IMG/VR virus record: IMGVR_UViG_3300043690_000025
Coordinates: 1-37,452 of that record
DNA from: a virus
Lineage: Duplodnaviria; Caudoviricetes
DNA length: 37,452 nt
Strand: one strand, 5' to 3'
Position numbers and translations under genes: made by a program. The notes below the pieces were generated by a model. The model did no database searches. It had not been told where the DNA came from and saw nothing but the letters and a program-made list of their open reading frames with translations. Positions 1 through 31,606 of the stretch are shown in pieces. Each line of letters begins with the position of its first letter. Within the stretch, counting starts at the first letter, position 1.

Positions 1-127
1 CATGTCAGGCCGGACGGGACCGTGTTCCTGTACACGCAGAAAACCGGCACGCCGGTCACCGTCCCGATCCCGGCTCCCGTCCTGGCGGCGTTCAACGCGT
101 TGCCCCGCGTCGGCCGGTATCCGTTCT
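1..127. repeat. Terminal direct repeat, copy 1 (circular assembly overlap)
   Basis: Identical to 37326-37452; lies inside the integrase ORF, which reads in frame across the join. Confidence 0.97.
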
Positions 128-441
128 GGAACGGCACCAGCGCCCTGCTGGGCGCCAGCGGCTACTGGCAACAAGGGCTGCTGTGGGTCTTCCGTCACGC
201 CGGCATTGCGAACGGCCATGCGCACCGCTTCCGCGACACGTTCGCCGTCGAGCTCCTGCTGGCCGGCGTCGACATCAAGGACGTCAGCGTGCTGCTGGGG
301 CACTCGACGACGCAGATCACCGAGAAGCATTACTCGCCCTGGGTATCAGCGCGACAGAGCCGTCTCGAAGCCGCCGTGCGCGCGTCTTTTGCAACCGCAC
401 CGGTGCCGGGTCCACCGCCGACGCCTGAGCCACCCGCCTGA
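1..441 (+). CDS. int: Tyrosine integrase, C-terminal part (continues from 36630; joined ORF 378 aa)
   Basis: QKT, HRFRDTFA (HxxR), LLGH and KHY catalytic motifs; in frame with the ORF starting at 36630. Confidence 0.95.
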   Translation, partial: HVRPDGTVFLYTQKTGTPVTVPIPAPVLAAFNALPRVGRYPFWNGTSALLGASGYWQQGLLWVFRHAGIANGHAHRFRDTFAVELLLAGVDIKDVSVLLGHSTTQITEKHYSPWVSARQSRLEAAVRASFATAPVPGPPPTPEPPA

Positions 442-16555: not shown

Positions 16556-17758
16556 TCAGCTCTCAATCCGCACGGCCAGCTCAGGCCGAATCGTCTTCCA
16601 CCCGTACAGGATGTCCATGCGGGCGGGGCTCTGATCGCTGTAAATGTCGTACGCCTTCACGAACCGGATCGAGATCCCGAGTTCCTTGCTGCGCACGCGT
16701 TCGGCCGCCCAGACGCCCTGCGGCATGTCGAGATCGGCCATCACGAGGGCGAACGCGTCGGGATGGAACCCGAGCCCGACATCCCCGGTGGCGGCGGGCG
16801 AGACGACCGTGATCGTGGCGCCGTTGGCGGGCGAGGCCGTCACGGTCTGGAACGGCCCGCTGGTCACAATCGGCGGCGACACGACGATGGACGTCGCGCC
16901 ACTAGCGGCCCCGGCCAGGAGGGTGAACTTCTGCAGCGACCCGACGTCGCTGTAGTTCTGCGGGTTGACCTGATCGACCCCGAGCAGCGTGATCACGTCG
17001 CCCTGATTCAGCGCCGCGCTCAACGCGGTGGTCGTGATCGTGTTGCCGGTCTGCCCCGCGCCCGCGACCGTCGCCGTATTGGCGGCCGCGCTGGTCCGCC
17101 GCGCCGTGTTCTGGTCCTGGTACATCTCTTCGAAGCCCAGGACGTTGGCCGCGAACTGCCCCTTCCGGAACGCGTCGCTAATCTCGTTGGTCGGATTGAA
17201 GAGCGCGAGATTGTTGCCGACCAGATTCGCCATCATCGCGGGCGAGACCACGAGACACCGCTGATCCACCGGGCAGGCCGCGTTACTGAGCGCGACGCCC
17301 GCATTCAGATACAGCTGATTGACGGTGGCCTGGGTCGCCGGCGGCGTGCCGAGCGTACCGACCTGCGCCCAGACTTCCTTGTAGCAGCGCCAGAGGCCAT
17401 CGTAGTCGACCGTGTTCGCGAGCTGGCTCGCGGCGGGCGTGATGTAGCGGGTCCGGTAGTCGTCGACTTCCATCGTCAACGACGCCGTCGAAAACGCCAT
17501 CCCGACATTCGCCTGGTCGGTCAGCGTGATCGGGACGACCGTGTCCTGGATCCCCTGCACGACCAGCGCCTGGCCCTTGTTGGTCGTGAAGCGCTGCGGC
17601 AGGCGCGCATTGACGGTGTAGCCGACTTTCGCGCCATCGTGAACAAACTGATCATCGTAGCTTCTGTTCACATTGGCGGCGAACTTGAGATTGTTAACGA
17701 GAATGCGGGCGACTTCTTTGGTCACCCAGTTGGGCGTAATTAAGGCATTGGTGGCCAT
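16556..17758 (-). CDS. Major capsid protein (P22 coat family)
   Basis: N.LITP.WVTKE...NRSYDDQF...KVG...RLP; FHPDAFAL; RMDILYG. Confidence 0.93.
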   Translation of the reverse strand: MATNALITPNWVTKEVARILVNNLKFAANVNRSYDDQFVHDGAKVGYTVNARLPQRFTTNKGQALVVQGIQDTVVPITLTDQANVGMAFSTASLTMEVDDYRTRYITPAASQLANTVDYDGLWRCYKEVWAQVGTLGTPPATQATVNQLYLNAGVALSNAACPVDQRCLVVSPAMMANLVGNNLALFNPTNEISDAFRKGQFAANVLGFEEMYQDQNTARRTSAAANTATVAGAGQTGNTITTTALSAALNQGDVITLLGVDQVNPQNYSDVGSLQKFTLLAGAASGATSIVVSPPIVTSGPFQTVTASPANGATITVVSPAATGDVGLGFHPDAFALVMADLDMPQGVWAAERVRSKELGISIRFVKAYDIYSDQSPARMDILYGWKTIRPELAVRIES

Positions 17759-17777: not shown

Positions 17778-18797
17778 TCATCGCAACCCCGCCTTCCGAC
17801 GACTGCGGTCGCTCTCATTCCCCCGGCGCACGTACTCCGGGCCAAATTCGAGATCGCTGTAGTCGCTCGAGCGGTGCGCGCCGGCCCCGACTGGCGTGAT
17901 CGGCGTCGGTGCGCGCAAGGGTGAACGAGGACCGGTGGAGACGGCGCCAGACGTCGAGTGCGCCTCCACGATCTGTGCGATGCGGCCCAAGGCAACCAAG
18001 GCGGGGCCGGGCGCCAATTCACTGATCCGGCGGGCATCCTCAGGGTGCTGGGCGAGGTAATAAATCGCCGCCACCCCGGACGGGTCGTGCGTAAAAAACT
18101 GGTCCATCGTCTCGGACACTGGCACGTCGCTGGCGCCCACCACCTCGGCATAGTCGGGATGCGCCGCGATGTAGTCCGTGCGTCGGGCCTCAAAGGCGGC
18201 CTGTGCAGCCGTCTGCGCCTGCTGCTGTTGCTGCGCGATGGTCGCCTGGAAAATCGCCGCCGCATGGCGATCGAGCTTCCAGTCCGCCACCGCGTCGACC
18301 CACTCCTCGTAGGTGCGGAACTGGTCGACCGTGGGCTTCGGCCGGTTCGGGTCGCGACTGGGCGCCGCCGGGGATAGGGGCGGCGCCCCCGTCGCCGCCG
18401 CGGGACCGGGAGCAGACCGGTCGCGCAGCTGCGCCTCCAGCGCGTCGAGCCGTTCGCGGTAGCTGTCGCGTTCGCGTTCGGCTTCGCGCTGCCGCCACGT
18501 CAGTTCGTTGATCCGCTTCTGGGATTCGCTCAGCGGTTTGCCAGGCGTGCCGCGTTGATGCGGCCGCACGGCGACGCCGGGCAGCGGCGGCTCGGCCTCG
18601 GACTCAGACGCCGGCGTCTCGGGGACCGACGCGGGTGTCGCGGCCGCACGCGGGCGATCGGCGATCCGCGGCGGCGTACGTTCGTTCGGATCCGCGCGTT
18701 CGCTGTCGCCGACCAACGGTGGCCAGTGGTCGGAGCCCGACTGCGCACTGACGGTGTCGTCGGTGGTCGTCGTCGGCGTGAGTGGTTCGTCGGCCAT
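17778..18797 (-). CDS. Scaffolding protein
   Basis: QKRINELT coiled coil; P...F.TYEEWVDAVADW; YYLAQHP; directly upstream of the coat gene. Confidence 0.88.
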   Translation of the reverse strand: MADEPLTPTTTTDDTVSAQSGSDHWPPLVGDSERADPNERTPPRIADRPRAAATPASVPETPASESEAEPPLPGVAVRPHQRGTPGKPLSESQKRINELTWRQREAERERDSYRERLDALEAQLRDRSAPGPAAATGAPPLSPAAPSRDPNRPKPTVDQFRTYEEWVDAVADWKLDRHAAAIFQATIAQQQQQAQTAAQAAFEARRTDYIAAHPDYAEVVGASDVPVSETMDQFFTHDPSGVAAIYYLAQHPEDARRISELAPGPALVALGRIAQIVEAHSTSGAVSTGPRSPLRAPTPITPVGAGAHRSSDYSDLEFGPEYVRRGNESDRSRRKAGLR

Positions 18798-18808
18798 GCG
18801 AAATTCAC

Positions 18809-18883
18809 GGGGACAAACGAAAAGGGGCGATGCAGCTCCGTGTTGCGGGTCACGGATCCACATCGCCCCTTCTCGATGTCCCC
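18809..18883 (-). promoter_or_regulatory. Long hairpin in the scaffold 5' leader
   Basis: Nested complementary arms GGGGACA/TGTCCCC, AAGGGGCGATG/CATCGCCCCTT and TCCGTG/CACGGA. Confidence 0.7.
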
Positions 18884-19022
18884 TTTGTCGCATCGCGCAG
18901 CCGCTGGGGTGCGGCGGTTCGGGTTGCAATCCCTAGCGCGAGCGGAAAGCTGTGTACGCTACATCTGGCCCGTCATTCTGCCACAACTGGAGGACGTCGC
19001 CGCAGCCGTCTGATCGCCCCTA

Positions 19023-19055: not shown

Positions 19056-19325
19056 GTGCTGATCGGCTTCGACCCCGCGAAAGAGGCGCGCAATCTCCAG
19101 AAGCATCACATCAGTCTGATGGCCTATGCCCTCATGGATCTGGACGTCGCGCTCGTCACGCCCGTTGAGCGGCATGGCGAATCGCGCATCGTGACGTATG
19201 CGCCGATTGCCGGGCGGTTGCATCAGGCTGTCTACACCCTGCGCGGCTCGATGACGTGGATGATCAGCTTGCGGAAAGCCAACACACGAGAGGTACGCCG
19301 GTATGCACGCGCACGCGCACGTTGA
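19056..19325 (+). CDS. brnT: BrnT family toxin (RNase)
   Basis: FDPAKEARNLQKHHIS...GESR...ISLRKANTRE..RY. Confidence 0.92.
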   Translation: MLIGFDPAKEARNLQKHHISLMAYALMDLDVALVTPVERHGESRIVTYAPIAGRLHQAVYTLRGSMTWMISLRKANTREVRRYARARAR

Positions 19326-19617
19326 ACCCGATGACGACGACACGATCTTGACGGACGCCGAACTCGACAACCTGAGACCCGCCGCGGAGGTGTTACCGGC
19401 CGAGTGGCTGGCCGCGCACCGGGCGCAACGGCGCCGCCGCGGCCGGCAGAAGGCCCCGACCAAGCGCCTGATCAGCCTGCGCCTCGATCGCGACGTGCTG
19501 GCGGCGTGGAAAGCCACGGGTCGGGGCTGGCAAAGCCGCATGCAGGCGATCTTGGCCGCACACGCGCCGCGCCGGATCACCGCACGACGCCGCGTCACCG
19601 CGACTCGCCAGTCCTAG
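19303..19617 (+). CDS. brnA: BrnA family antitoxin
   Basis: RGRQKAPTK..ISLRLDRDVL...KATGRGWQSRM; overlaps brnT. Confidence 0.92.
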   Translation: MHAHAHVEPDDDDTILTDAELDNLRPAAEVLPAEWLAAHRAQRRRRGRQKAPTKRLISLRLDRDVLAAWKATGRGWQSRMQAILAAHAPRRITARRRVTATRQS

Positions 19618-22017: not shown

Positions 22018-22578
22018 TCACCCGATCCGCGTGATCGGCGCATGGCGCGTCACGCCCATCGCCGCTTGTTGTGTCAGCACCCAGCCGCCCCGTTCGCGCG
22101 TCGCGCGTTCCGCCGCGTCCTGCACGATGCAGTACTTCAGATTCGCCCCATCGAAGCGGTACAGCATGCGCGGATATTCGCGATACACGTACGGCGCCGT
22201 TCTTTGGACCACGAATCGACGTTTCAGCACCGTACTGGGCACACGCTCGAACGCGTCCACCAGCGCCGCCAGAATGCGCGCCCGGCGCTGCGCCAACACC
22301 CGCTCCGCGCGCTGCGCCTCTTTCGCTTGTGCCCGCGCACGCGCGACCCGCTCGCGGTCGGCCGCCTGGCGCTGCGCCTCCCGCGCCGCCGCCGATCGGG
22401 CCACCTGCTCGATCGTCCGCGACTCGGGCGCGTCCACGACCAGCGGATCGCCTGGACCGTAATAGGCGCTCGCGTGCAGCGGCCGGTCATAGCCGAAGCT
22501 CGCCAGCACGTCGCGCACTTCCCACTGTTCCGGCCAGAATTCCTGCGATCGAATCAGCCACGCCTCGGGCGGTCGCAT
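22018..22578 (-). CDS. Hypothetical protein with C-terminal YP-motif domain (copy 3)
   Basis: TGATG overlap with TerL-B; YVYREYPRMLY...IVQDAAER...GW. Confidence 0.65.
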   Translation of the reverse strand: MRPPEAWLIRSQEFWPEQWEVRDVLASFGYDRPLHASAYYGPGDPLVVDAPESRTIEQVARSAAAREAQRQAADRERVARARAQAKEAQRAERVLAQRRARILAALVDAFERVPSTVLKRRFVVQRTAPYVYREYPRMLYRFDGANLKYCIVQDAAERATRERGGWVLTQQAAMGVTRHAPITRIG

Positions 22579-24047
22579 CACCCCAACCACGCATCGGCCC
22601 CACTGGGCCCCCGACTGCGCGCCGCCACCCGATCCGCCTGGCGCGCCAGCTCCCGCCGCGCTTCCGCCGCTTTCTCCGCCTCCGTCAACTGCTGCGCACC
22701 GAAACTGAGCTCCAGATACTCCGCGCAGTTCATGCCGTGGTCGTACCAGCCGTCTTTCTTCGGCGTCCGCACCTGCTTGCGCCCGACCGAGACCAGATGC
22801 TCGCTCCACACATAGCCCGCCTCGAAGGCGTCCGCAACAAACGTCCAGGGCTGCGTCTCCCCCTTGCCCGTGACACGTAGCCAGCGCGTCGGGTCGCGCT
22901 CGACCAGCAAGGCTTCGCCAACCGGGGTGCGGCGCCGCATGTGCGCGCCAAGGCGCTCAATCATCGCCAGGCGCACCTCCGGACTATTCGCCGTGGTGCG
23001 CCACACGGGCGCGAAGCCCGCCTCCTTGAGAATCTGCACGCCGGTCAGGCGCGTCCCGCTCGGCGCCTGGGCGCCCGCCGGGTCGCAACAGGTCTGCAGC
23101 GAGGCGATCTGCGGAAACCACTGCGCCCGCGTCTGCTGCACGAGCGGCAGAAAATCTTCGAGGAACAAGTCTTGACCCAGGATGCCGCCCAGATAGACGA
23201 CGCCGCCCAAGGGCGGATACTGCGCCCAGACGAGACAGGGATGATGCCGCCCGAAGTCGATCCCCTCGTAGAGCGGCAGTGCCGGGTTGTAGACGCAGGG
23301 CCGCACATGCAGCGCGCGCGTAAACAGCCCTTTATAGACCGGCGTGCCAATGACGTTGAGCCCGCGCAACCCTTCGATCGCCGTGCGCCGTTTCGGATGC
23401 CCCGGCGGATAGGTCGCCTCGAGATCCGCAATCGTTTCCGGTGGCAGGTTGTGCGCGTTGTCGTAGATGCTCAGATGGTAGTACCGCTTGCGCGGGTCCG
23501 GATTACCCTCCGGAAATTCCTGCGCGAGCCAATGCGCCTCACTCGGCGGGTTGGGCGTCAAGAGAATCTGATGCGGATAGCCGGACTGCGAGAGTCGGCC
23601 GGCGAGCTCGAGAAACACGTCGTACGGCAACTCTTCGGCCTGGTCCACATAGATCCCGGCGAGCGTGAGACCGCGCAGCTTGGCGTAGCGCATCACCTGG
23701 TCGGCCGCCTTCAGCCCGAAGAGATACACGCGCGAGCCGTTCGCCAACTGGTCGTATTGTTCGTTCGGGTTCCAGATGAACCGCACGCCCATCGTGTGCA
23801 GCGTCTGCCGCCACGGCGGCCGTAACTTGGATTGCGTGTCCTGGTCGCCGTAGCGACAGACCAGCCAGTGCATCCCGGGATGCTGCAGACACGCGGCCGC
23901 GACTTTCGCCAGCGCCGCCGTGGTTTTGCCCGAGCGAAATGCGCCCTCGAGATCGACCAGACGTGCGTCGTCTCGGATGAAGCCTTCGATCGGCCCGCGC
24001 CAATCGAAATAGACTTCGCGCCGCGCCTCAGGGGTGGCCGTCGCCAT
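22578..24047 (-). CDS. terL: Terminase large subunit B (portal-proximal)
   Basis: GAFRSGKT Walker A; IYVDQAEE Walker B; TPNP motif III; GIDFG and DPAG nuclease motifs. Confidence 0.9.
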   Translation of the reverse strand: MATATPEARREVYFDWRGPIEGFIRDDARLVDLEGAFRSGKTTAALAKVAAACLQHPGMHWLVCRYGDQDTQSKLRPPWRQTLHTMGVRFIWNPNEQYDQLANGSRVYLFGLKAADQVMRYAKLRGLTLAGIYVDQAEELPYDVFLELAGRLSQSGYPHQILLTPNPPSEAHWLAQEFPEGNPDPRKRYYHLSIYDNAHNLPPETIADLEATYPPGHPKRRTAIEGLRGLNVIGTPVYKGLFTRALHVRPCVYNPALPLYEGIDFGRHHPCLVWAQYPPLGGVVYLGGILGQDLFLEDFLPLVQQTRAQWFPQIASLQTCCDPAGAQAPSGTRLTGVQILKEAGFAPVWRTTANSPEVRLAMIERLGAHMRRRTPVGEALLVERDPTRWLRVTGKGETQPWTFVADAFEAGYVWSEHLVSVGRKQVRTPKKDGWYDHGMNCAEYLELSFGAQQLTEAEKAAEARRELARQADRVAARSRGPSGADAWLG

Positions 24048-24510
24048 TGCCGTTCTCGTGCGTCGGCAGGAGGGCCCGCGCGTCAGGCGTCACGTCGATG
24101 ACGGCCGGCGGCTGCGAAGCAAAGCGGAATACGATAGTGACCGGCGCCTCGTCACGCGCCGTAGGCGCCTCAGGCGTCAGGTCCAGTCGCAACAATTTGG
24201 CGCGGCGTTCCATCACGCTGACCATCGCGCGGCAGGCGCTCGGATCGCCGTTGCGCACGCCCGCCGTCAACGCCACGGTGAGGACATCCAAGCGCCGCGC
24301 TTCGAGTTCGCGCAGCCGCTCAGCTTTGCGCTTCACTAGCGCATCTAACGACCCGAGTTCCTTCTGGACGTCGTAAAACGCGGTTTTGTCGGTGACGCCC
24401 AACTGGCGCCCGATCTGGCGATAGGTCGCCCCGGCAATACGGAGCTCCAGCGCCTTGACCGCCCGATCCCGCTGCGCTTCAGCTCGCCCGTTGAGCTTCG
24501 ACGGATGCAT
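24028..24510 (-). CDS. terS: Terminase small subunit B (HTH type)
   Basis: ALELRIAGATYRQIGRQLGV...RLD...MERRAKLLRLD; overlaps the TerL-B start. Confidence 0.78.
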   Translation of the reverse strand: MHPSKLNGRAEAQRDRAVKALELRIAGATYRQIGRQLGVTDKTAFYDVQKELGSLDALVKRKAERLRELEARRLDVLTVALTAGVRNGDPSACRAMVSVMERRAKLLRLDLTPEAPTARDEAPVTIVFRFASQPPAVIDVTPDARALLPTHENGNGDGHP

Positions 24511-24530
24511 GCCAACATTACCTGTCTGTA

Positions 24531-25781
24531 TTACCCGCGCACGGCTTCGCCGACTTTGACGGCACGCTGACCGGTGAACGCTTCCCAGCGGTCGATGATG
24601 ACTTGGCAATACTGCGGCTCTAGCTCAAGCCCGAAGCAGCGCACACCGTGCTGCTCCGCCGCAATGAACTGTGGCCCGCTCCCGGCAAACAGCTCATAGC
24701 ACGACTCGGCACCCCGTAAGTGCTTGACGATGGGCGTCGTAAAGAGCGCGACCGGCTTCGGGGTCGAGTGATTGAATGCCTGGCGCTCTGCCGCAGTCAC
24801 GTGGGCAAGTTCCCACACGGTCGTCTGTGTGCGCTCACCGGCGCCGAGTCCATAATCAGGCGGCTGATGCCCTTCAACCCAGCCCATAAAACAGGGTTCG
24901 TGCTTCCAGTGATACTGCCCGCGCCCGAGCAAGAGCACCGGCTTGACCCAGATAATTTGCCGATGCAGCACGACGTTTGCAGCAGCAGCAGCAGCAGCAG
25001 CAAAGAATCCTTGCGTCAGGTGCGCGTGCCAGAGATACCACGCCGCGTTGACCGCGAGCGCGTGCGCCGTCGCCACTCGAAACGCCGCTTCGAGAAACGT
25101 CTGCAACGCCTCATCACGAAGTTCGTCCTTCGCCACCCGTGGCTTCGCCACTCCAGGATTCGGTCGGTCATCGTTGGCGTACGAGACTCCGTACGGCGGG
25201 TCGGTATTCATCAGCCCGGCATGTACGTCGCCCATCAGCCGCGCCACGTCCTCCGCCTGCGTACTATCGCCGCAGAGCAGCCGATGCGTCCCCAACTCAA
25301 ACAGATCCCCGCGCTGAATGTCGGTCGCCCGCTGCTCGGGCACCTCGTCCGGATCCGTGCGCCCCGCCTTCGCCGTCACCGGTACGCCGAGCAGCGCGGC
25401 CAGCTCCTCATCGGTCCAGAACGTCTGCAGATCCAGCCCCTGCGCCTGGTCGGCCAGGAGCTGCGCCACGTCCCAGGTCGCCAGTTCCGCCGTGCGGTTG
25501 TCGTAGAGCGCCAACGCCCGTTTCTGTGCGTCGGTCAAGCCGCGCCGCCGCACCGCAATCAGCTCATCGCCGGTCGCGTCGACCATCCGCACTTTCGAGA
25601 GTCCCGCCGCTTTCGCCGCCTGGACGACGCCGTTGCCGGCCAGCACGACGTTGTCTTCGTCGACGACGATGGACCGCGCCGCGCCCACCTGCTTCAGCGC
25701 GTCCGCAATCATCGCGACGTTGCGCGCATTGTGCGTGCGGCGATTGGTCGGGTCCGGCTTCAGCGTCTGCAGCGTCGGCAT
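24531..25781 (-). CDS. ParB-like N-terminal domain plus amino-DNA methyltransferase (beta class)
   Basis: PDPTNRRTH...LYDNR; HRLLCGDST, TDPPY, HSTPKP, ELFAGSG. Confidence 0.92.
   Translation of the reverse strand: MPTLQTLKPDPTNRRTHNARNVAMIADALKQVGAARSIVVDEDNVVLAGNGVVQAAKAAGLSKVRMVDATGDELIAVRRRGLTDAQKRALALYDNRTAELATWDVAQLLADQAQGLDLQTFWTDEELAALLGVPVTAKAGRTDPDEVPEQRATDIQRGDLFELGTHRLLCGDSTQAEDVARLMGDVHAGLMNTDPPYGVSYANDDRPNPGVAKPRVAKDELRDEALQTFLEAAFRVATAHALAVNAAWYLWHAHLTQGFFAAAAAAAANVVLHRQIIWVKPVLLLGRGQYHWKHEPCFMGWVEGHQPPDYGLGAGERTQTTVWELAHVTAAERQAFNHSTPKPVALFTTPIVKHLRGAESCYELFAGSGPQFIAAEQHGVRCFGLELEPQYCQVIIDRWEAFTGQRAVKVGEAVRG
24979..25002. repeat. (GCA)8 trinucleotide tract encoding poly-Ala
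   Basis: Read directly; in frame within the MTase. Confidence 0.9.
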
Positions 25782-25783
25782 GC

Positions 25784-26065
25784 TCAGACCTGAGGCGACC
25801 CAGTAACAACCGGCAGCGTCCCGGGCGCGAGCGTGGGCTGCGTGAGCGGCGGCCGCACCGGCGCGATGCGCGGCACGCCGGGATGGACGACCGCCACCGG
25901 ATGGACGTGAATATGGAGCGTCGAAGGGCCGGCGTATTGCCGCAGCCGACGGCCCGCTTTCGCGCCGGCGAGGGCGGCAACCGCAATCGGATGGACGGGG
26001 CGGGCATAACTGCCGAGGCGCCGCCGTTCAGCCAACATCCGAGTTTGCGCGGGAGTTAGGGCCAT
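25784..26065 (-). CDS. Hypothetical basic, Pro-rich protein
   Basis: AGGAG RBS; packed between neighbours. Confidence 0.6.
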   Translation of the reverse strand: MALTPAQTRMLAERRRLGSYARPVHPIAVAALAGAKAGRRLRQYAGPSTLHIHVHPVAVVHPGVPRIAPVRPPLTQPTLAPGTLPVVTGSPQV

Positions 26066-26068
26066 GGA

Positions 26069-26284
26069 TTAGCGCACTCCTTTCGCGTAATCGCTGAGGC
26101 GCCTGCGCCGGTTCGCGCGTGCGCTGGAGCCCTTCACATAATGGGGGAGGTTCGTTTCCTTCGTCGCCGCGAACTCGTGCAGCGTTTTGCGCGGGAGTTG
26201 CGCGAGGCGCGGATAGTAGCTCTCGGAGGGATCATGTTCCGCGATGGCCATGGCCCGTCTTTGGGCGACCGATTGGCTAGGCAC
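26069..26284 (-). CDS. DUF3008-like small protein
   Basis: MPSQSVAQRRAMAIA...LHEFAATKETNLP. Confidence 0.65.
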   Translation of the reverse strand: MPSQSVAQRRAMAIAEHDPSESYYPRLAQLPRKTLHEFAATKETNLPHYVKGSSARANRRRRLSDYAKGVR

Positions 26285-26335
26285 TGTTCACCCCGCGTCC
26301 TTGCATTCTACGCTGGTCGAGCGACGCGGCGCGCA

Positions 26336-26650
26336 TCAATGCACCTGCGTCGGCGGCGTCACGCCCTCGTCGAGATCCGCCAGAAACAGGACGCGCGTCA
26401 TCGCCCGCACCAGGTCTGCGCACACCCGCGCGCCGACCACCAGCCCGGCCAGATCCTCCGCGGTCGCCGTGCCCGACGCGATCACGCGGTCATTGAGCGC
26501 CGCCACCCGTCGCAGCACCACCCACGCGTCCCGCTCGAGCGCGGTCCAGGCGTGGCGCGTCACGATGGGCGCATCGGGCTGCGCCAGCCAGCCTTCCAGC
26601 GTCGCGACGATCGCGGCGCCCTGCTGGTCGAGCTCGTCGGCGAGCGTCAT
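26336..26650 (-). CDS. Hypothetical protein
   Basis: ATGA overlap; GGGGAG RBS. Confidence 0.6.
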   Translation of the reverse strand: MTLADELDQQGAAIVATLEGWLAQPDAPIVTRHAWTALERDAWVVLRRVAALNDRVIASGTATAEDLAGLVVGARVCADLVRAMTRVLFLADLDEGVTPPTQVH

Positions 26651-26880
26651 GCTCCCCGCTCCCACGCGTGACAAATCCGGGCATATTCTGGCCCGCACTC
26701 GCCGGTCGCGGCATAGACCCGCACGAATGCGAGCAGCGCGATTTTTCGGGGTAAGCGCATCGCGATCATCCATGGCAGCGTTTCGTGCCAGTGCCAGCGC
26801 AGACGCGCCGGGGCGTAATGCCGCACCAGCCACCACCGATACCCGACCTGCCACCGTAGCGTGCCTTCGGGTGCGGTCAC
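26647..26880 (-). CDS. Hypothetical Trp-rich protein
   Basis: Overlaps both neighbours by 4 nt. Confidence 0.6.
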   Translation of the reverse strand: MTAPEGTLRWQVGYRWWLVRHYAPARLRWHWHETLPWMIAMRLPRKIALLAFVRVYAATGECGPEYARICHAWERGA

Positions 26881-27002
26881 GGGACGAACTTCCCGATGGC
26901 GAGGAGGATCACCGCGACGGGGATCAGCGGATACGCCGACGCCACAAAACTCGCGACGGCGAGCAGCAGCGCAATCACGGCGAGAATCTGGCCAGCCGTC
27001 AT
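26877..27002 (-). CDS. 41-aa two-TM membrane protein (holin candidate)
   Basis: GGAGGAGG RBS; MTAGQILAVIALLLAVASFVASAYPLIPVAVILLAIGKFVP. Confidence 0.6.
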   Translation of the reverse strand: MTAGQILAVIALLLAVASFVASAYPLIPVAVILLAIGKFVP

Positions 27003-27057
27003 ATCGCCTCCTCCCTCACAGCCTCCACGCTTGGACGCACGCCGGAACAGGACCCTG

Positions 27058-27591
27058 TCAGGGCCAGTCCGCATCGTCCGGCGCGCGTTGCTTAGGCTGC
27101 AGCACCGGCCCGTCACCTTGACGCAGCGAGGCCACGTACTCGACCGTGCGACGGGCCATCGACCGCGGAACACAGACACCCTGCGTGCGATAGCCGTCAT
27201 TCAGCGCCGCGCGCAGCGGATACCGCATCCACCATGCGGGCAGACGGCTCCGCACCCGCCGGAAGAGGAACATCCAGACTTCATCGGGCACGATGAAATA
27301 CGCGAGCCAATCGGCACGACTGGAGAAGACCCAACCCTCTCGGCCGGTCACGTCATTGCTGACCAGTTCAAAAAACAGATTGCCCGTCCGCGCGGCCCGT
27401 TCGTCGCACTTGTAGTCAATCCCGACGGGACCCTCGGGCGTGACCGCAACGCGGTCAATGCCCTGCCATTGCTCGTCCATCGTGGCCTCGCGCAGGTCGT
27501 ACGCCTCGCGGAGCCACCTATCGAGCGTCGGCGCCCATCGCCGTTCGACGCCCTGACTCGCCGCGAACTGATGCACCATCTCTGGCTTCAT
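27058..27591 (-). CDS. PD-(D/E)xK nuclease-like protein
   Basis: QWQGID...IDYKCD...TGNLFFE...GW...ADWLAY. Confidence 0.6.
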   Translation of the reverse strand: MKPEMVHQFAASQGVERRWAPTLDRWLREAYDLREATMDEQWQGIDRVAVTPEGPVGIDYKCDERAARTGNLFFELVSNDVTGREGWVFSSRADWLAYFIVPDEVWMFLFRRVRSRLPAWWMRYPLRAALNDGYRTQGVCVPRSMARRTVEYVASLRQGDGPVLQPKQRAPDDADWP

Positions 27592-27596
27592 CAGTC

Positions 27597-28433
27597 TCAG
27601 TCCTCGAGGGTCAGGCGCTCCCAGCAGTGGCCCAGATCGGCAAACGCACGGCAGAAGTCCTCGATGTCGTCGCCCAGGTAGACGACCATTGATGGAAAGG
27701 GGGCTGGGTCCTCACTTCCAATGAAAGTTAAGCGCCCTTCGATAAAACAGACCGGGCAGACCCGACGGTACCAGTCCGTGAGCCGCTTAAACCATTGCGT
27801 ATCGGTCCGCGCGGGCACCAGCGCAATTGCCTCAGTCACGCCACCATCGCGCTCGTATTCCACACAGAGTTTCTCCACCCACGCATCAATCTCGCGTCCG
27901 TAGGGCGGGTTCATGTAGACGCGACCCTCCCAAGGCTGCGCGAGCCCATCGTCCACGGCGGTATAGTGGCGCGCGGCCGGGACGTTCGGTGTGCCGGGAT
28001 TACTGCACGGATCGAGATCAATCGCCCCGAGGCACTGGAGGACACGCTCGACAATCAGCGTCGGCGTACAGTGCTCAGGCGTCTCGCTGGAGAAATGGAC
28101 GGCCAACTTCTGACCCACGTTCGCCACCTCGTTATAGGCATCGCGGAAGCGCGGCCGTGGATTGTGATTAGTAAACTGTTCGAATACCTTCCGCGTCCAC
28201 ACCACATGACTCTGTGAGTACGGCTTACCTGTTCGCCCGTTGATCCACTGGGCGGCCAGTACCCGCGTTGACGGACCACCTGGCGCGTCCAACTGCTCGA
28301 CCACCTTCGCAGCCTGCTCCCACAATGCCGCGTCCGCATCGTCTTCGCCGCGAATCACCCGCAGTTCCAACGTATTGATCTCGCGCATCGCGAAATCGAA
28401 CACGGACTGCACGACGGCCGTCGTCTCTTTCAC
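27597..28433 (-). CDS. Phage Dam-like N6-adenine DNA methyltransferase with N-terminal extension
   Basis: TP...DLDPCS...DDGL..W...MNPPY...ARTDTQWF...GRL.F. Confidence 0.88.
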   Translation of the reverse strand: MKETTAVVQSVFDFAMREINTLELRVIRGEDDADAALWEQAAKVVEQLDAPGGPSTRVLAAQWINGRTGKPYSQSHVVWTRKVFEQFTNHNPRPRFRDAYNEVANVGQKLAVHFSSETPEHCTPTLIVERVLQCLGAIDLDPCSNPGTPNVPAARHYTAVDDGLAQPWEGRVYMNPPYGREIDAWVEKLCVEYERDGGVTEAIALVPARTDTQWFKRLTDWYRRVCPVCFIEGRLTFIGSEDPAPFPSMVVYLGDDIEDFCRAFADLGHCWERLTLED

Positions 28434-28442
28434 GCGCCTCTC

Positions 28443-28877
28443 CTACTGGGCCCGCCGCCAGGTGCCGCTCGCCGTCGCACTGAGCGCGCCCGCCCCCTGC
28501 GCGTACGCATCCCGAAACACCGTCCCGTTGATGAACACCGCGACCTGCACGATCCCGCTGGTCGTGACCGCATTACATTGGGCCTCGAGCAACACGAACA
28601 GCGTCGCCTGCTTCGATTGAAACGTCGCGAAGTAGGGCAACGACACCGCGGGCAGCACCGTCGTGCCGTCGATGTCGTCATCGGTGATGATCTGGACCGG
28701 AGCCCCGCCGCAATTCCCCGTCGCCCGGTATTCGATGGTGTCGGCCGTGGTCGTCGGCGAGGATGGACTCGTCGCCGTCATCGGGATCGGGGTGACGACG
28801 GGTCGATTGGAGTTGTCTTGACAGCCGAGGCCGCCGAGCGCCAGGGCCGTGCAGAGGGACGCGAGCGAATGTCTCAT
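28443..28877 (-). CDS. Lipoprotein with beta-sandwich-like domain
   Basis: Signal peptide ending LGGLG-C; Thr/Ser/Pro linker; GGAGGAG RBS. Confidence 0.7.
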   Translation of the reverse strand: MRHSLASLCTALALGGLGCQDNSNRPVVTPIPMTATSPSSPTTTADTIEYRATGNCGGAPVQIITDDDIDGTTVLPAVSLPYFATFQSKQATLFVLLEAQCNAVTTSGIVQVAVFINGTVFRDAYAQGAGALSATASGTWRRAQ

Positions 28878-29065
28878 ACACTCCTCCATGCGGCCTGCGC
28901 GCGCGCGCGGCGGCAGCTTCGACAGAACCAGAACCACGCGCCCGTCTGCGGATTGACCGTCAGCCGTTCGCGACAGCCGCGCGTCTGACACTGCCCGCGC
29001 GCATGGTGCCGGTCATGCCAGAGGCGATTGCGCGCACGACGGGCACGCAGCGCGCACGCCGTCAT
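28874..29065 (-). CDS. Small Cys/Arg-rich protein
   Basis: CQTRGC...CRSC; ATGA overlaps on both sides. Confidence 0.55.
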   Translation of the reverse strand: MTACALRARRARNRLWHDRHHARGQCQTRGCRERLTVNPQTGAWFWFCRSCRRARAQAAWRSV

Positions 29066-29355
29066 GGCACCCGCTCCGGGCGCCGCGACCGCCGCCGCGT
29101 CGGGGGAGCCCACTGCGCGCTCACAAACGTCAGCACCGCGTACCCGCCACACGTCCCGGCGACGGTCTCACACACCACGGCGGCATCGTGCCCGGTCAAC
29201 GGATACGCCGCGTGCCGATCCCGCGACCACGCTCCGGGGGCGGTGTAGTACTCCGGCGGCGCCCCGTGCGTGCGCCGACGCACCACGACGAACCGCTGCA
29301 CGCGGACCCGGGAGTCGTCCCCGGCGCACCGCGAGCCCACCGCTAGCCCATCCAT
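29062..29355 (-). CDS. Hypothetical protein
   Basis: Fills the gap between TerL-A and the next gene with overlaps. Confidence 0.5.
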   Translation of the reverse strand: MDGLAVGSRCAGDDSRVRVQRFVVVRRRTHGAPPEYYTAPGAWSRDRHAAYPLTGHDAAVVCETVAGTCGGYAVLTFVSAQWAPPTRRRSRRPERVP

Positions 29356-30629
29356 CCCTGCACGCCCGTCGGCAGCTTCGGGAGCTGCGGCGCCCGCGGC
29401 TTCTCCTTCGGCGTCTGCTGCCGCACCGCCAAGTACCGAAACGCACTCGCCCCGTGTTCCGCCCAGTCGTGTACCGGCTGCGCCTTGTATTCGTTCAAGC
29501 GCGTGTTGAAATCGCGCCGGTAGTGCTGTAGCGCCTCAAGCCCCGCCCGACACTTCTCCTCGTCGAACCAGCAGCGCGGGAACAGCATCCGCGCCGCATG
29601 GATGCCGTCCTCCAGCGGGATGTTCGGGCAAATCTGAAACTTGATGCCGAGACTCGCGGCCGTTTCGAGCCGCGACCGGCCGCTGCCGAGTTCTCTCACC
29701 TGGATGTCGTGCGGCGCGCCGTGCGTGCCGTAGACGTAGCCTTTCGCGTTGAGGATCTGCGCGTAGTGCGGGAGGCCTTCGCCGCTCGATTCGTAGTAGT
29801 CGATAAGTCGTACTTCCCCGCCGCGCGTTGACTGACTGAACCAGATGGCCGTCGAATCACCAACTCCCAAGTCCCAGTCCGTATCGACGGGCAGCACCGG
29901 ATCAACAGGCACGGATCCGCCAATCCGACCAGCGCGCCGTCCAGCCTCCAACTCACCGGCAAAAATGGCACCCTTGACGGACGCTTCGAAGCTGCACTCG
30001 TACTCTTGCGCGTACTCATCGGCCGTCATGTCCTTTCGCGCTGCGGCCAGTTCGTCCGCCGGAATAATCCCGGTCGCACTCGCCTTGAACTCCGCGAAAA
30101 ACCATTGCGGATCGCGCTTGGCCTGCTGCACCACTTCGTAAAACTGATTCTTCCCTGCCGGCGTGCCGAGAAAGAGCGCCCACCCTTGCCGGTCACTCAG
30201 CGCCGGCCGCACGACTTCGGTGAAGATGCGCGGCGGCATCAGGCCGTACTCGTCGAGTACCACGCCGTCGAAGTAGAGCCCGCGCAGACTGTCCGGATTG
30301 TCCGCGCCGTAGATGCGGACCTGGCCGCCGTTCGGATAATCCACCGCGAGCTCGGACACGCGCGACGTCACGCCGGGAATCGGCTGCGAGAAGTCCAGCA
30401 GATAGTCGAAGGCAATCGCTTTGCCCTGTGCGTAGGTCGGCGCGATGTACGCAAAGCGCGGGCGTTCGCGTGGACAGAGCAGCGCGCACTTAATCAGGTG
30501 ATTGACGGCCGCGACGGTTTTGCCGAGACGGCGATGGGCGACCACGACGCCGAAGCGGTGCGTCTCGAGGCCATCGTGAATGGCCCACTGCGCTTTACGC
30601 GGCGCGTAGTCGATCTCGACTTCAGGCAC
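29343..30629 (-). CDS. terL: Terminase large subunit A (428 aa)
   Basis: GTG start overlapping the MTase stop; HRRLGKT, APTYAQ, LRG...VVLDE, GTP; WDLG, PHD and HGASAFRY nuclease motifs. Confidence 0.93.
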   Translation of the reverse strand: MPEVEIDYAPRKAQWAIHDGLETHRFGVVVAHRRLGKTVAAVNHLIKCALLCPRERPRFAYIAPTYAQGKAIAFDYLLDFSQPIPGVTSRVSELAVDYPNGGQVRIYGADNPDSLRGLYFDGVVLDEYGLMPPRIFTEVVRPALSDRQGWALFLGTPAGKNQFYEVVQQAKRDPQWFFAEFKASATGIIPADELAAARKDMTADEYAQEYECSFEASVKGAIFAGELEAGRRAGRIGGSVPVDPVLPVDTDWDLGVGDSTAIWFSQSTRGGEVRLIDYYESSGEGLPHYAQILNAKGYVYGTHGAPHDIQVRELGSGRSRLETAASLGIKFQICPNIPLEDGIHAARMLFPRCWFDEEKCRAGLEALQHYRRDFNTRLNEYKAQPVHDWAEHGASAFRYLAVRQQTPKEKPRAPQLPKLPTGVQGWMG

Positions 30630-31188
30630 TGATTCGCTCAAACGGCAGACGCTGCGCGCCTGCGAGCCAGCGGTTATATTTGATGGCCGGACCACGCGTA
30701 AACCGAGGCCTCGGTTTCGGCTTGTCCGTCGCGGACGACCGGAAGACCTGCAGCACACGCGCCGCGCAGGAGTCCCCAACACGCACCAGCCATCCGCGCT
30801 CGAACGCACAGGCGCCATCGCCCGCAATCCAGATCGTGTGAAACCAAACCACCCGCTCACGCGCTACATAGGCTGCGGCTCGCAGAAGCTGCTGTTTCAT
30901 CTGCTGATTGAGGGGGAAATACGGCGGATCGAGAATGACCACATCGAACGCGTCTCGTCGAAACGGCGGTAACCAGGCATCCCCGAGTACGTGCGGACGG
31001 GTGCTGACATCGATGTCCAATTTCGTGCCCCACGTCGCGAATCCTCCGAACATCTGCAGCACGCGCTTGCCCTCCGTCAGCGCGCACAGGTGTTTCTCGA
31101 CGGCCGGCGGGAATGACCAGCGATTCGACTTCCCCTGACGGGCGTTCGCACACCAGAGCACGCCGACGTCTCTCGGTGGCCTACTCAT
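30622..31188 (-). CDS. Small amino-DNA methyltransferase-like protein
   Basis: VLQMFGG (motif I-like), GDA, FDVVILDPPY (motif IV); lies between TerS-A and TerL-A. Confidence 0.78.
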   Translation of the reverse strand: MSRPPRDVGVLWCANARQGKSNRWSFPPAVEKHLCALTEGKRVLQMFGGFATWGTKLDIDVSTRPHVLGDAWLPPFRRDAFDVVILDPPYFPLNQQMKQQLLRAAAYVARERVVWFHTIWIAGDGACAFERGWLVRVGDSCAARVLQVFRSSATDKPKPRPRFTRGPAIKYNRWLAGAQRLPFERISA

Positions 31189-31606
31189 CGCGCGCCCCTT
31201 TCCACTTGATGACCAGCGGCCCGCCGTCCGCGCCCGTCACCGCCACCGACTCGGTCGGCTTCCCCATCGTCCGGTCGAGCACATCGCGCACGGCCGCCAT
31301 CTGCACCGTCGGGAACTCGTCGCGATCCAGCAGCCGGTCGAGTGTGCCAAAGGCTTTCGGCTGCATGGCGAGCAGCCGTTCCTGCGCCTTCGCCTTGACG
31401 TGCGGCGCCGAGCCGCCATGCATCCGACACACGGTGCCCCCCGCAATCGCCGGGTTTTTGCACGGCTGGCCGTTCCGTTTGCCCGTCGCCGTACAGCGCG
31501 GCGCCCCCGGCGCGAGCAGCGGATGCATTTGCATGAGGCTCGCGGTTTGCGACGGGTCCGCATCCACCGTGGAGGCTTTGACTGGGCCACGCGGCGCGTG
31601 CTTCAT
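31181..31606 (-). CDS. terS: Terminase small subunit A (HGGxSTG-like Zn domain)
   Basis: RCTA...PCKNPA...CRMHGG; DVLDR.MGKP; VTGADGGPLVIKW tail typical of TerS. Confidence 0.72.
   Translation of the reverse strand: MKHAPRGPVKASTVDADPSQTASLMQMHPLLAPGAPRCTATGKRNGQPCKNPAIAGGTVCRMHGGSAPHVKAKAQERLLAMQPKAFGTLDRLLDRDEFPTVQMAAVRDVLDRTMGKPTESVAVTGADGGPLVIKWKGARDE

Follow-up and report, generated by a model that had tools for sequence, protein, structure and literature searches.

Temperate podophages of the P22/Sf6 type package their DNA by the headful, using a module in which one small terminase (TerS) and one large terminase (TerL) precede a P22-type portal, the scaffold, the coat and gp4- and gp10-like genes. 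Two TerL annotations per genome have been published for the phages vB_G30_01, PDS1 and vB_EfS_SE; in the accessible parts of these reports they are parts of one gene, split by mutation or possibly by a homing endonuclease (PMC11512304, PMC10773633, PMC11510935). Tandem TerL homologs occur in jumbo phages, and the accessible part of that source leaves their nature unstated (PMC11273794). Here we describe IMG/VR record IMGVR_UViG_3300043690_000025, a viral DNA stretch of 37,452 nucleotides (nt) that we call the window. It shares the temperate lifestyle and gene order of the P22/Sf6-like module, but it has two complete TerS/TerL pairs of unrelated families, which we call A and B, and neither TerL is of the P22 type. 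Unlike the TerLs of the published two-TerL phages, those of the window are full length, unrelated to each other and each accompanied by its own TerS. We conclude that this is a phage with two intact terminase modules, and that the arrangement is real, verified and so far unique. In the mainly open-access literature we found no report of two complete unrelated terminase pairs; the matches were split genes, jumbo-phage tandem homologs, alternative alleles and misannotations.

An initial annotation of the window had proposed two complete, unrelated TerS/TerL pairs serving one portal. This proposal is borne out: all four open reading frames (ORFs) are present on the minus strand (Table 1). Both TerLs match phrog_2 over most of their length, as well as PF03237, and each has an ATPase half and a nuclease half. 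BLASTP aligns TerL-A with TerL-B over a single 46-residue stretch (30% identity, E 0.002). Because only these residues align, and both proteins are full length, a split or duplicated TerL gene, whether as halves or as close paralogues, is ruled out. The predicted model of TerL-B (pLDDT 88.5) has a two-domain ATPase and nuclease fold and matches the TerLs of D6E, Sf6, T4 and HK97 in Foldseek searches (best E 2e-21, D6E). By sequence profile and by fold, the D6E large terminase (PDB 5oe8; PBSX/Terminase_3-like) is the closest solved structure to TerL-B, which departs from it in a Walker B that reads D-Q and in a long C-terminal helix that bears a Trp tail. The closest cultured relatives of TerL-A are the TerLs of the Pelagibacter phages HTVC024P, Greip and Skadi (46-47% identity); these phages have one TerL match per record among the matches listed, whereas the window has two TerLs.

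The two TerS proteins differ in their DNA-binding folds, again as first annotated. TerS-A combines an HGGxSTG motif with a CCCH set that we read from the sequence as C38, C49, C60 and H63, and its relatives occur in 16 loci, every one TerL-A-type. TerS-B combines a helix-turn-helix (HTH) with long helices. It has no TerS annotation of its own, and a locus search from its single sequence found nothing. A fold search with TerS-B returned generic HTH and helical hairpins as its best rows (Z up to 8.0; root-mean-square deviation 3.0 over 54 aligned residues), with no TerS among the matches. In relatives of TerS-B, a TerL of one of several families lies just downstream in 65 of 80 loci, a count made up of 43 loci linked by profiles or BLAST and 22 of 30 further ORFs assigned by PHROGs. 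Both proteins have the DNA-binding N-domain, helical core and position before a TerL that mark small terminases. TerS-B-like HTH domains are also found within an ORF of about 550 amino acids (aa) directly before the portal in four other loci (L376, L377, L380 and L417); in two of these records phrog_2 matches an ORF of that size, which suggests TerS-TerL fusions.

An assembly chimera of two phages would also place two cassettes beside one portal. The metagenomic origin of the record, and the fact that both cassettes never lie on one contig from an independent sample, would suit this explanation, but the read data make it scarcely credible. Run X1, which may be the source sample, yields one 37,355-bp contig with 0 differences and a flat depth of about 19-21; coverage over 22-32 kb is thus even, with no break or chimeric join found. 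Runs X2 and X3, from other studies, contain 0.85 and 0.78 of the window's words. Their contigs together cover 23.9-31.7 kb, apart from a few gaps of at most about 300 nt between the listed pieces, and differ from the window there by 1 substitution and one 6-nt indel; no joints were seen, and none of these contigs alone covers both cassettes. We took joints and loose ends with sides of 20-23 nt to be chance matches, among them a 10-kb contig that had two, and drew no support from runs X4 and X5 (shares 0.13 and 0.06). The cassettes share no long repeat, base composition is even, and codon use and GC content at third codon positions (GC3) give no mark of cassette edges. We reject the chimera on the X1 contig and the X2/X3 tiling. 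The X1-X3 populations are nearly identical and nearly clonal, so we count them as one lineage and one event; among them the ratio of nonsynonymous to synonymous divergence (dN/dS) gives no signal. TerL is relied on as a marker present once per viral genome and as a test for chimeras, to which the window is a verified exception.

Elsewhere, both TerL families are ordinary sole terminases. We searched the longest records, in sets of 50, picked from 80 B and 80 A loci. A TerL-A profile matched 0 of 27 B records (0 of 18 among those at least 90% complete), with the window itself matched as a control. A TerL-B profile matched 0 of 49 records (42 A-type and 7 found by their portals; 15 complete), with the B-type genome G001 matched as a control. 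In three sets of 50, phrog_2 matched at most one gene per record, the sole double match lying inside one ORF; it recovered 18 of 50 B genes, and a distant third TerL family in relatives could be missed. PF17289 failed to match even the window's own TerLs. TerL-A relatives have a single phrog_2 match per record, mostly just before a portal. Among 340 stored loci, some of them duplicated across collections, the window alone has both TerL families. In one locus (L025:8038-11272) the A-type TerL is inverted relative to the portal, scaffold and coat genes, and in another (L010:3500-9700) about 6 kb of genes that read, from their translations, as glycosyltransferase-like, radical-SAM-like and collagen-like lie between TerL and portal.

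The window is a complete phage: an exact 127-nt repeat common to both ends closes it into a circle of 37,325 bp, and a tyrosine integrase ORF of 378 aa continues in frame over the join of the contig ends (36630-37452 plus 1-441, plus strand). Pfam and PHROGs scans of 45 chosen ORFs identified a P22-type portal, scaffold, coat, head-tail and ejection genes, Erf, YqaJ and a replication initiator, with one portal, one scaffold and one coat gene, in agreement with the initial annotation. With its P22-type portal and coat, head-tail and ejection genes and integrase, it is a temperate P22-like podophage of soil metagenomes. The integrase region is 68-76% identical in nucleotides to that of G026, a B-type phage, and B-type genes are present in three contigs of metagenome-assembled genomes, each from a different phylum. 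A BrnT/BrnA toxin-antitoxin pair (19056-19617, plus strand) is inserted between portal and scaffold on the opposite strand. The gap of about 4.8 kb between TerL-A and TerS-B holds small genes, the Dam-like gene and the ParB-methyltransferase. Three methyltransferase-like genes cluster around the terminases; the one that overlaps TerS-A and TerL-A has a 60% relative in locus L219 that sits between a TerS-B-like gene and a TerL-B. A (GCT)n run (24970-25011) codes for poly-Ala in the 416-aa ParB-methyltransferase, of which a database variant has 414 aa (P0245), and the 6-nt indel of the X2/X3 contigs over this gene is probably in that run.

Table 1. Positions of the terminase, head and neighbouring genes in the window
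Feature	Positions	Strand	Basis
TerS-A, small terminase, HGGxSTG/CCCH N-domain, 141 aa	31181..31606	-	NF041373; Atlas structure match to Terminase_2
Methyltransferase-like ORF, 188 aa, DPPY motif, overlaps TerS-A and TerL-A	30622..31188	-	weak NCBIfam match
TerL-A, incoming large terminase, 428 aa, GTG start	29343..30629	-	phrog_2, PF03237; 74-83% identity to relatives
Dam-like adenine methyltransferase, in small-gene block between cassettes	27597..28433	-	PF05869, phrog_111
Small conserved gene, 71 aa, at candidate junction of parental gene orders	26069..26284	-	position in relatives
ParB-N and N6/N4 methyltransferase, directly upstream of TerS-B	24531..25781	-	phrog_498, PF01555
TerS-B, HTH-type small terminase, 160 aa	24028..24510	-	TerL just downstream in relatives' loci; predicted model
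TerL-B, resident large terminase, 489 aa	22578..24047	-	phrog_2, PF03237; 64-65% identity to L085 and L098
Single P22-like portal, 784 aa	19614..21968	-	PF16510 (E 3e-147); Sf6 and P22 portals in PDB
Scaffolding protein	17778..18929	-	phrog_8865
P22-type coat protein	16556..17758	-	PF11651

Comparison with relatives shows which pair came first. The closest portal relatives, 70% identical, are in loci L084 and L085. The latter belongs to G001, a genome of 40.7 kb rated complete, where TerL-B is 65% identical and TerL-A is absent; a PHROGs scan of 28 of the longer G001 ORFs found one TerL. Locus L098 has TerL-B at 64% and no TerL-A; L098 and L084 are both fragments, and their names share a sample number. 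The B tree places the window with G001 (support 0.84). Synonymous divergence (dS) from G001 is 0.85 for TerL-B, 0.72 for the portal and 0.77 for the coat, and such similar values are expected under joint descent. Because the 70% portal relatives carry TerL-B alone, and TerL-B has diverged in step with portal and coat, pair B is the resident that descends with them. The nearest loci to TerL-A (74-78%) adjoin portals just 28-36% identical to that of the window, and a TerL-A-type protein is also found beside a portal 42-44% identical to it (L058). Pair A is a newcomer from other lineages, because its relatives sit beside other portals.

Neither TerL shows signs of decay, judging from conserved residues. 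In TerL-A the ATPase residues are R34, G36-K37-T38 (Walker A) and D126-E127 (Walker B), with R, G, K, D and E invariant in 118 relatives. Its nuclease residues D253, D308 and E391/H392 make up the RNase H set of three carboxylates and a His. Position 395 is Ser instead of the usual Asp, and E391 covaries with it (41 ES, 76 SD, 1 other; n=118); E391/S395 is a compensated family variant. Decay of TerL-A had seemed plausible in a first alignment, where W304G and D395S looked like damage, and was dismissed when these were found in relatives or compensated. At columns at least 90% conserved, TerL-A has 1 deviation against a median of 3.5. In TerL-B the nuclease residues are D264, D322, D432 and D436/H437, of which D264, D322, D432 and H437 are invariant; N440 stands at the usual last Asp, and the acid at 436 corresponds to E391 of TerL-A. 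The residues of the SPP1 nuclease were taken from the accessible part of PMC3592435. The last nuclease carboxylate is displaced by one helical turn in 41 of 118 TerL-A relatives, and TerL-B has the same shifted arrangement. Relative-rate tests of TerL-B against L085 and L098, 10 in all, gave no excess in any. The initial annotation had looked to dN/dS for each TerL; pairwise values of 0.13-0.17 for TerL-A, 0.35-0.39 for TerL-B and 0.29-0.32 for the portal are all below 0.4, but they are near saturation and span the time before the merger, so they cannot date it.

The ATPase site of TerL-B is unusual. Its Walker A motif is GKT40-42, and D135-Q136 at Walker B aligns with the D-E of the D6E TerL, placing Gln where the catalytic Glu directly after the Walker B Asp is usual. 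Residues 135-139 are D-Q-x-E-E in 118 of 118 relatives, with Q136, E138 and E139 invariant. In lambda, as reported in the accessible part of the source, the equivalent change E179Q is lethal and leaves under 1% of ATPase activity (PMC6379665). Alignment with D6E and the lambda mutant could both be taken to mean a division of labour, in which TerL-B is a poor ATPase and TerL-A supplies the motor. We consider this very unlikely: the Gln is a property of the whole family, a B-type TerL is the sole one recognised among the ORFs scanned in the complete genomes G001 and G026, and 18 complete B records have no second match, though these searches miss many distant TerLs. Because B-type proteins are the sole recognised TerLs of G001 and G026, the Gln does not disqualify TerL-B; it lowers the case for a canonical ATPase site, not the case that the protein works as a TerL. 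ATP hydrolysis in the TerL-B family may do without the usual catalytic Glu, likely by means of another carboxylate; the invariant E138/E139 or the near-invariant D68/D70 could act as the base. A literature search, at the level of listings, turned up no natural D-Q terminase family. This family challenges the rule of an essential Walker B glutamate.

Can both motors use the one portal? TerL-A ends in PTGVQGWMG and TerL-B in PSGADAWLG. Both fit P-[ST]-G-x-x-x-W-[ML]-G, which is present in the four nearest relatives of TerL-B and in 4 of 117 other A proteins. Where a locus had both a portal call and a classed tail, every Trp tail was paired with a P22-like portal (A, 49/49; B, 64/64) and every longer tail ending in RGGY with a distant SU10-like portal class (A, 8/8; B, 26/26); the tally leaves out 28 loci whose tail was classed but which lack a portal call, and 17 whose tails are of other types. 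Two more TerL types beside P22-like portals end in W-M (L087-L089, L091 and L092; L422 and L424). Tail type appears to follow portal class, not TerL family. TerL C-termini bind the portal in T3, lambda, SPP1 and P22, according to the accessible part of PMC13595956. Because Trp tails track P22-like portals across TerL families, we predict that both motors could dock on the single portal. The window brings two motors and a portal together in one natural system in which to ask what lets an unrelated motor fit a new portal; a simple candidate rule is that a short tail at the C-terminus matches the portal class, whichever the TerL family.

Alternatively, TerL-A may be a passenger that came with the neighbouring small genes, has no productive docking and at most cuts at its own pac site. 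The low identity of the portals beside its nearest relatives is consistent with this, as is its GTG start, which has no clear ribosome-binding site before it and only a gene overlap. We think it rather improbable, given that TerL-A has a tail of the P22-portal type, that an A-type TerL occurs with the 42-44% relative of the window portal, and that TerL-A is free of decay.

A dual packaging system, as the initial annotation suggested, would be a selected state in which both motors are used with two pac specificities. Satellite proteins Ppi and Rpp act on TerS. The benefit of two pairs could be continued packaging despite a satellite or co-resident prophage that blocks or diverts one TerS, or the packaging of DNA from two classes of pac-like sites. 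Both cassettes are intact, each with its own TerS, and the same arrangement is present in three studies. The last nine residues of TerL-A fit the TerL-B pattern, although this pattern was defined afterwards and, since the nearest relatives of A end in a similar tail, most of the match is inherited. Dual tubeA offers a precedent for a recombinant duplicate that became fixed (PMC10386132, in its accessible part). No second lineage with both cassettes appeared among the searched records, and the three nearly clonal populations count as one event. The suggestion stands insofar as both TerLs are intact and have the tail of the portal class, but we saw no sign of conservation of, or selection for, the pairing, and we consider a selected system unlikely, if still a serious contender. 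The broader proposal, of a stable pair of unrelated motors on one portal, with their own pac specificities, a portable Trp-tipped tail that docks any TerL family on P22-like portals, and one motor lacking the Walker B Glu, we likewise hold to be doubtful. The suggestion of a backup against Avs defences does not follow. As described in the accessible part of PMC13601566, Avs proteins kill the cell upon binding terminase, and the backup fails because a second TerL would add a trigger rather than remove one.

The annotation's other suggestion, a module replacement caught in progress, fits best: B is resident, A comes from another lineage and no relative found has both. With confidence somewhat better than even, we read the window as a terminase exchange intermediate, in which offset recombination with another podophage added a compatible but redundant pair A and both modules were kept. 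A 71-aa gene between the A block and the B block marks the possible junction. Its family, found in 31 other loci, consists of unannotated small basic proteins near terminase and head genes of P22-like soil phages, which start M-P-A/S and contain A-E-H. The gene follows TerL in 14 of 15 A loci and precedes TerS in L097 (G001) and L098; over all B loci it is upstream in 8 and downstream in 8. In the window it lies where the two orders meet. In its first 25 residues the protein is nearest to A loci L017 and L044 (17 and 14 identities versus 11-12), and its C-terminal RLSDYA is otherwise found only in L097 and L098. Because the gene follows TerL in A phages and precedes TerS in the window's own lineage, an offset crossover in or near it is suggested.

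On this exchange reading, the donor would have carried TerS-A, TerL-A, small genes and the 71-aa gene before its own portal; in the recipient, that 71-aa gene would have preceded TerS and TerL-B. Crossing over within it or close by would retain both cassettes in one late operon. Headful packaging would then begin at two pac sites, one for each TerS and its partner TerL, with a given procapsid filled by only one type of motor and TerL-A docking on the same portal by its matching C-terminal tail. B would likely do the routine work, and A, likely redundant, could be tolerated because the genome is just 37.3 kb. Such a state would be the intermediate required of terminase exchange with offset crossovers, with one cassette lost later. 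A promoter and terminator scan gave counts at chance level (1 versus 1.7; 9 versus 8.1).

Several points weigh against this reading. Because no relative is close at the DNA level, the absence of decay does not tell a "recent" merger from a "selected" one. TerL-B has 9 deviations against a median of 4 (93rd percentile). Of the A loci, only 71 of 155 have a flank of 6 kb on the side where the other cassette would lie; of the B loci, only 53 of 167 do. The exact tail pattern was set after viewing both sequences, and the tail-portal counts amount to only 2 (A) and 3 (B) independent switches on trees, so that Fisher values overstate the case. The junction is placed by one 71-aa gene and distant proxies, and the middle of the 71-aa protein does not favour A. 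Two extra genes and a different TerS lie between this gene and TerL-B, so there must have been further exchanges. For the early arm the best match is a B-type phage (G026), and insertion of the A cassette therefore fits as well as a swap of the whole arm. As for the annotation's doubt that all relatives might carry one cassette and the second evolve neutrally, relatives with this portal do carry one cassette in our searches, and TerL-A shows no decay.

Terminase swaps between phage lineages are already known. In the Sulfitobacter phage GT1-like podoviruses, as far as the accessible part of the source describes them, terminases have been exchanged against head modules, and two phage groups carry a pair of divergent tubeA genes that recombination fixed (PMC10386132). 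As in the window, terminases have been swapped, and recombination between lineages has left two very divergent copies of one function. The doubled gene of the GT1-like phages encodes a virion protein that is kept in a whole clade, whereas that of the window encodes a packaging enzyme and is found in one lineage.

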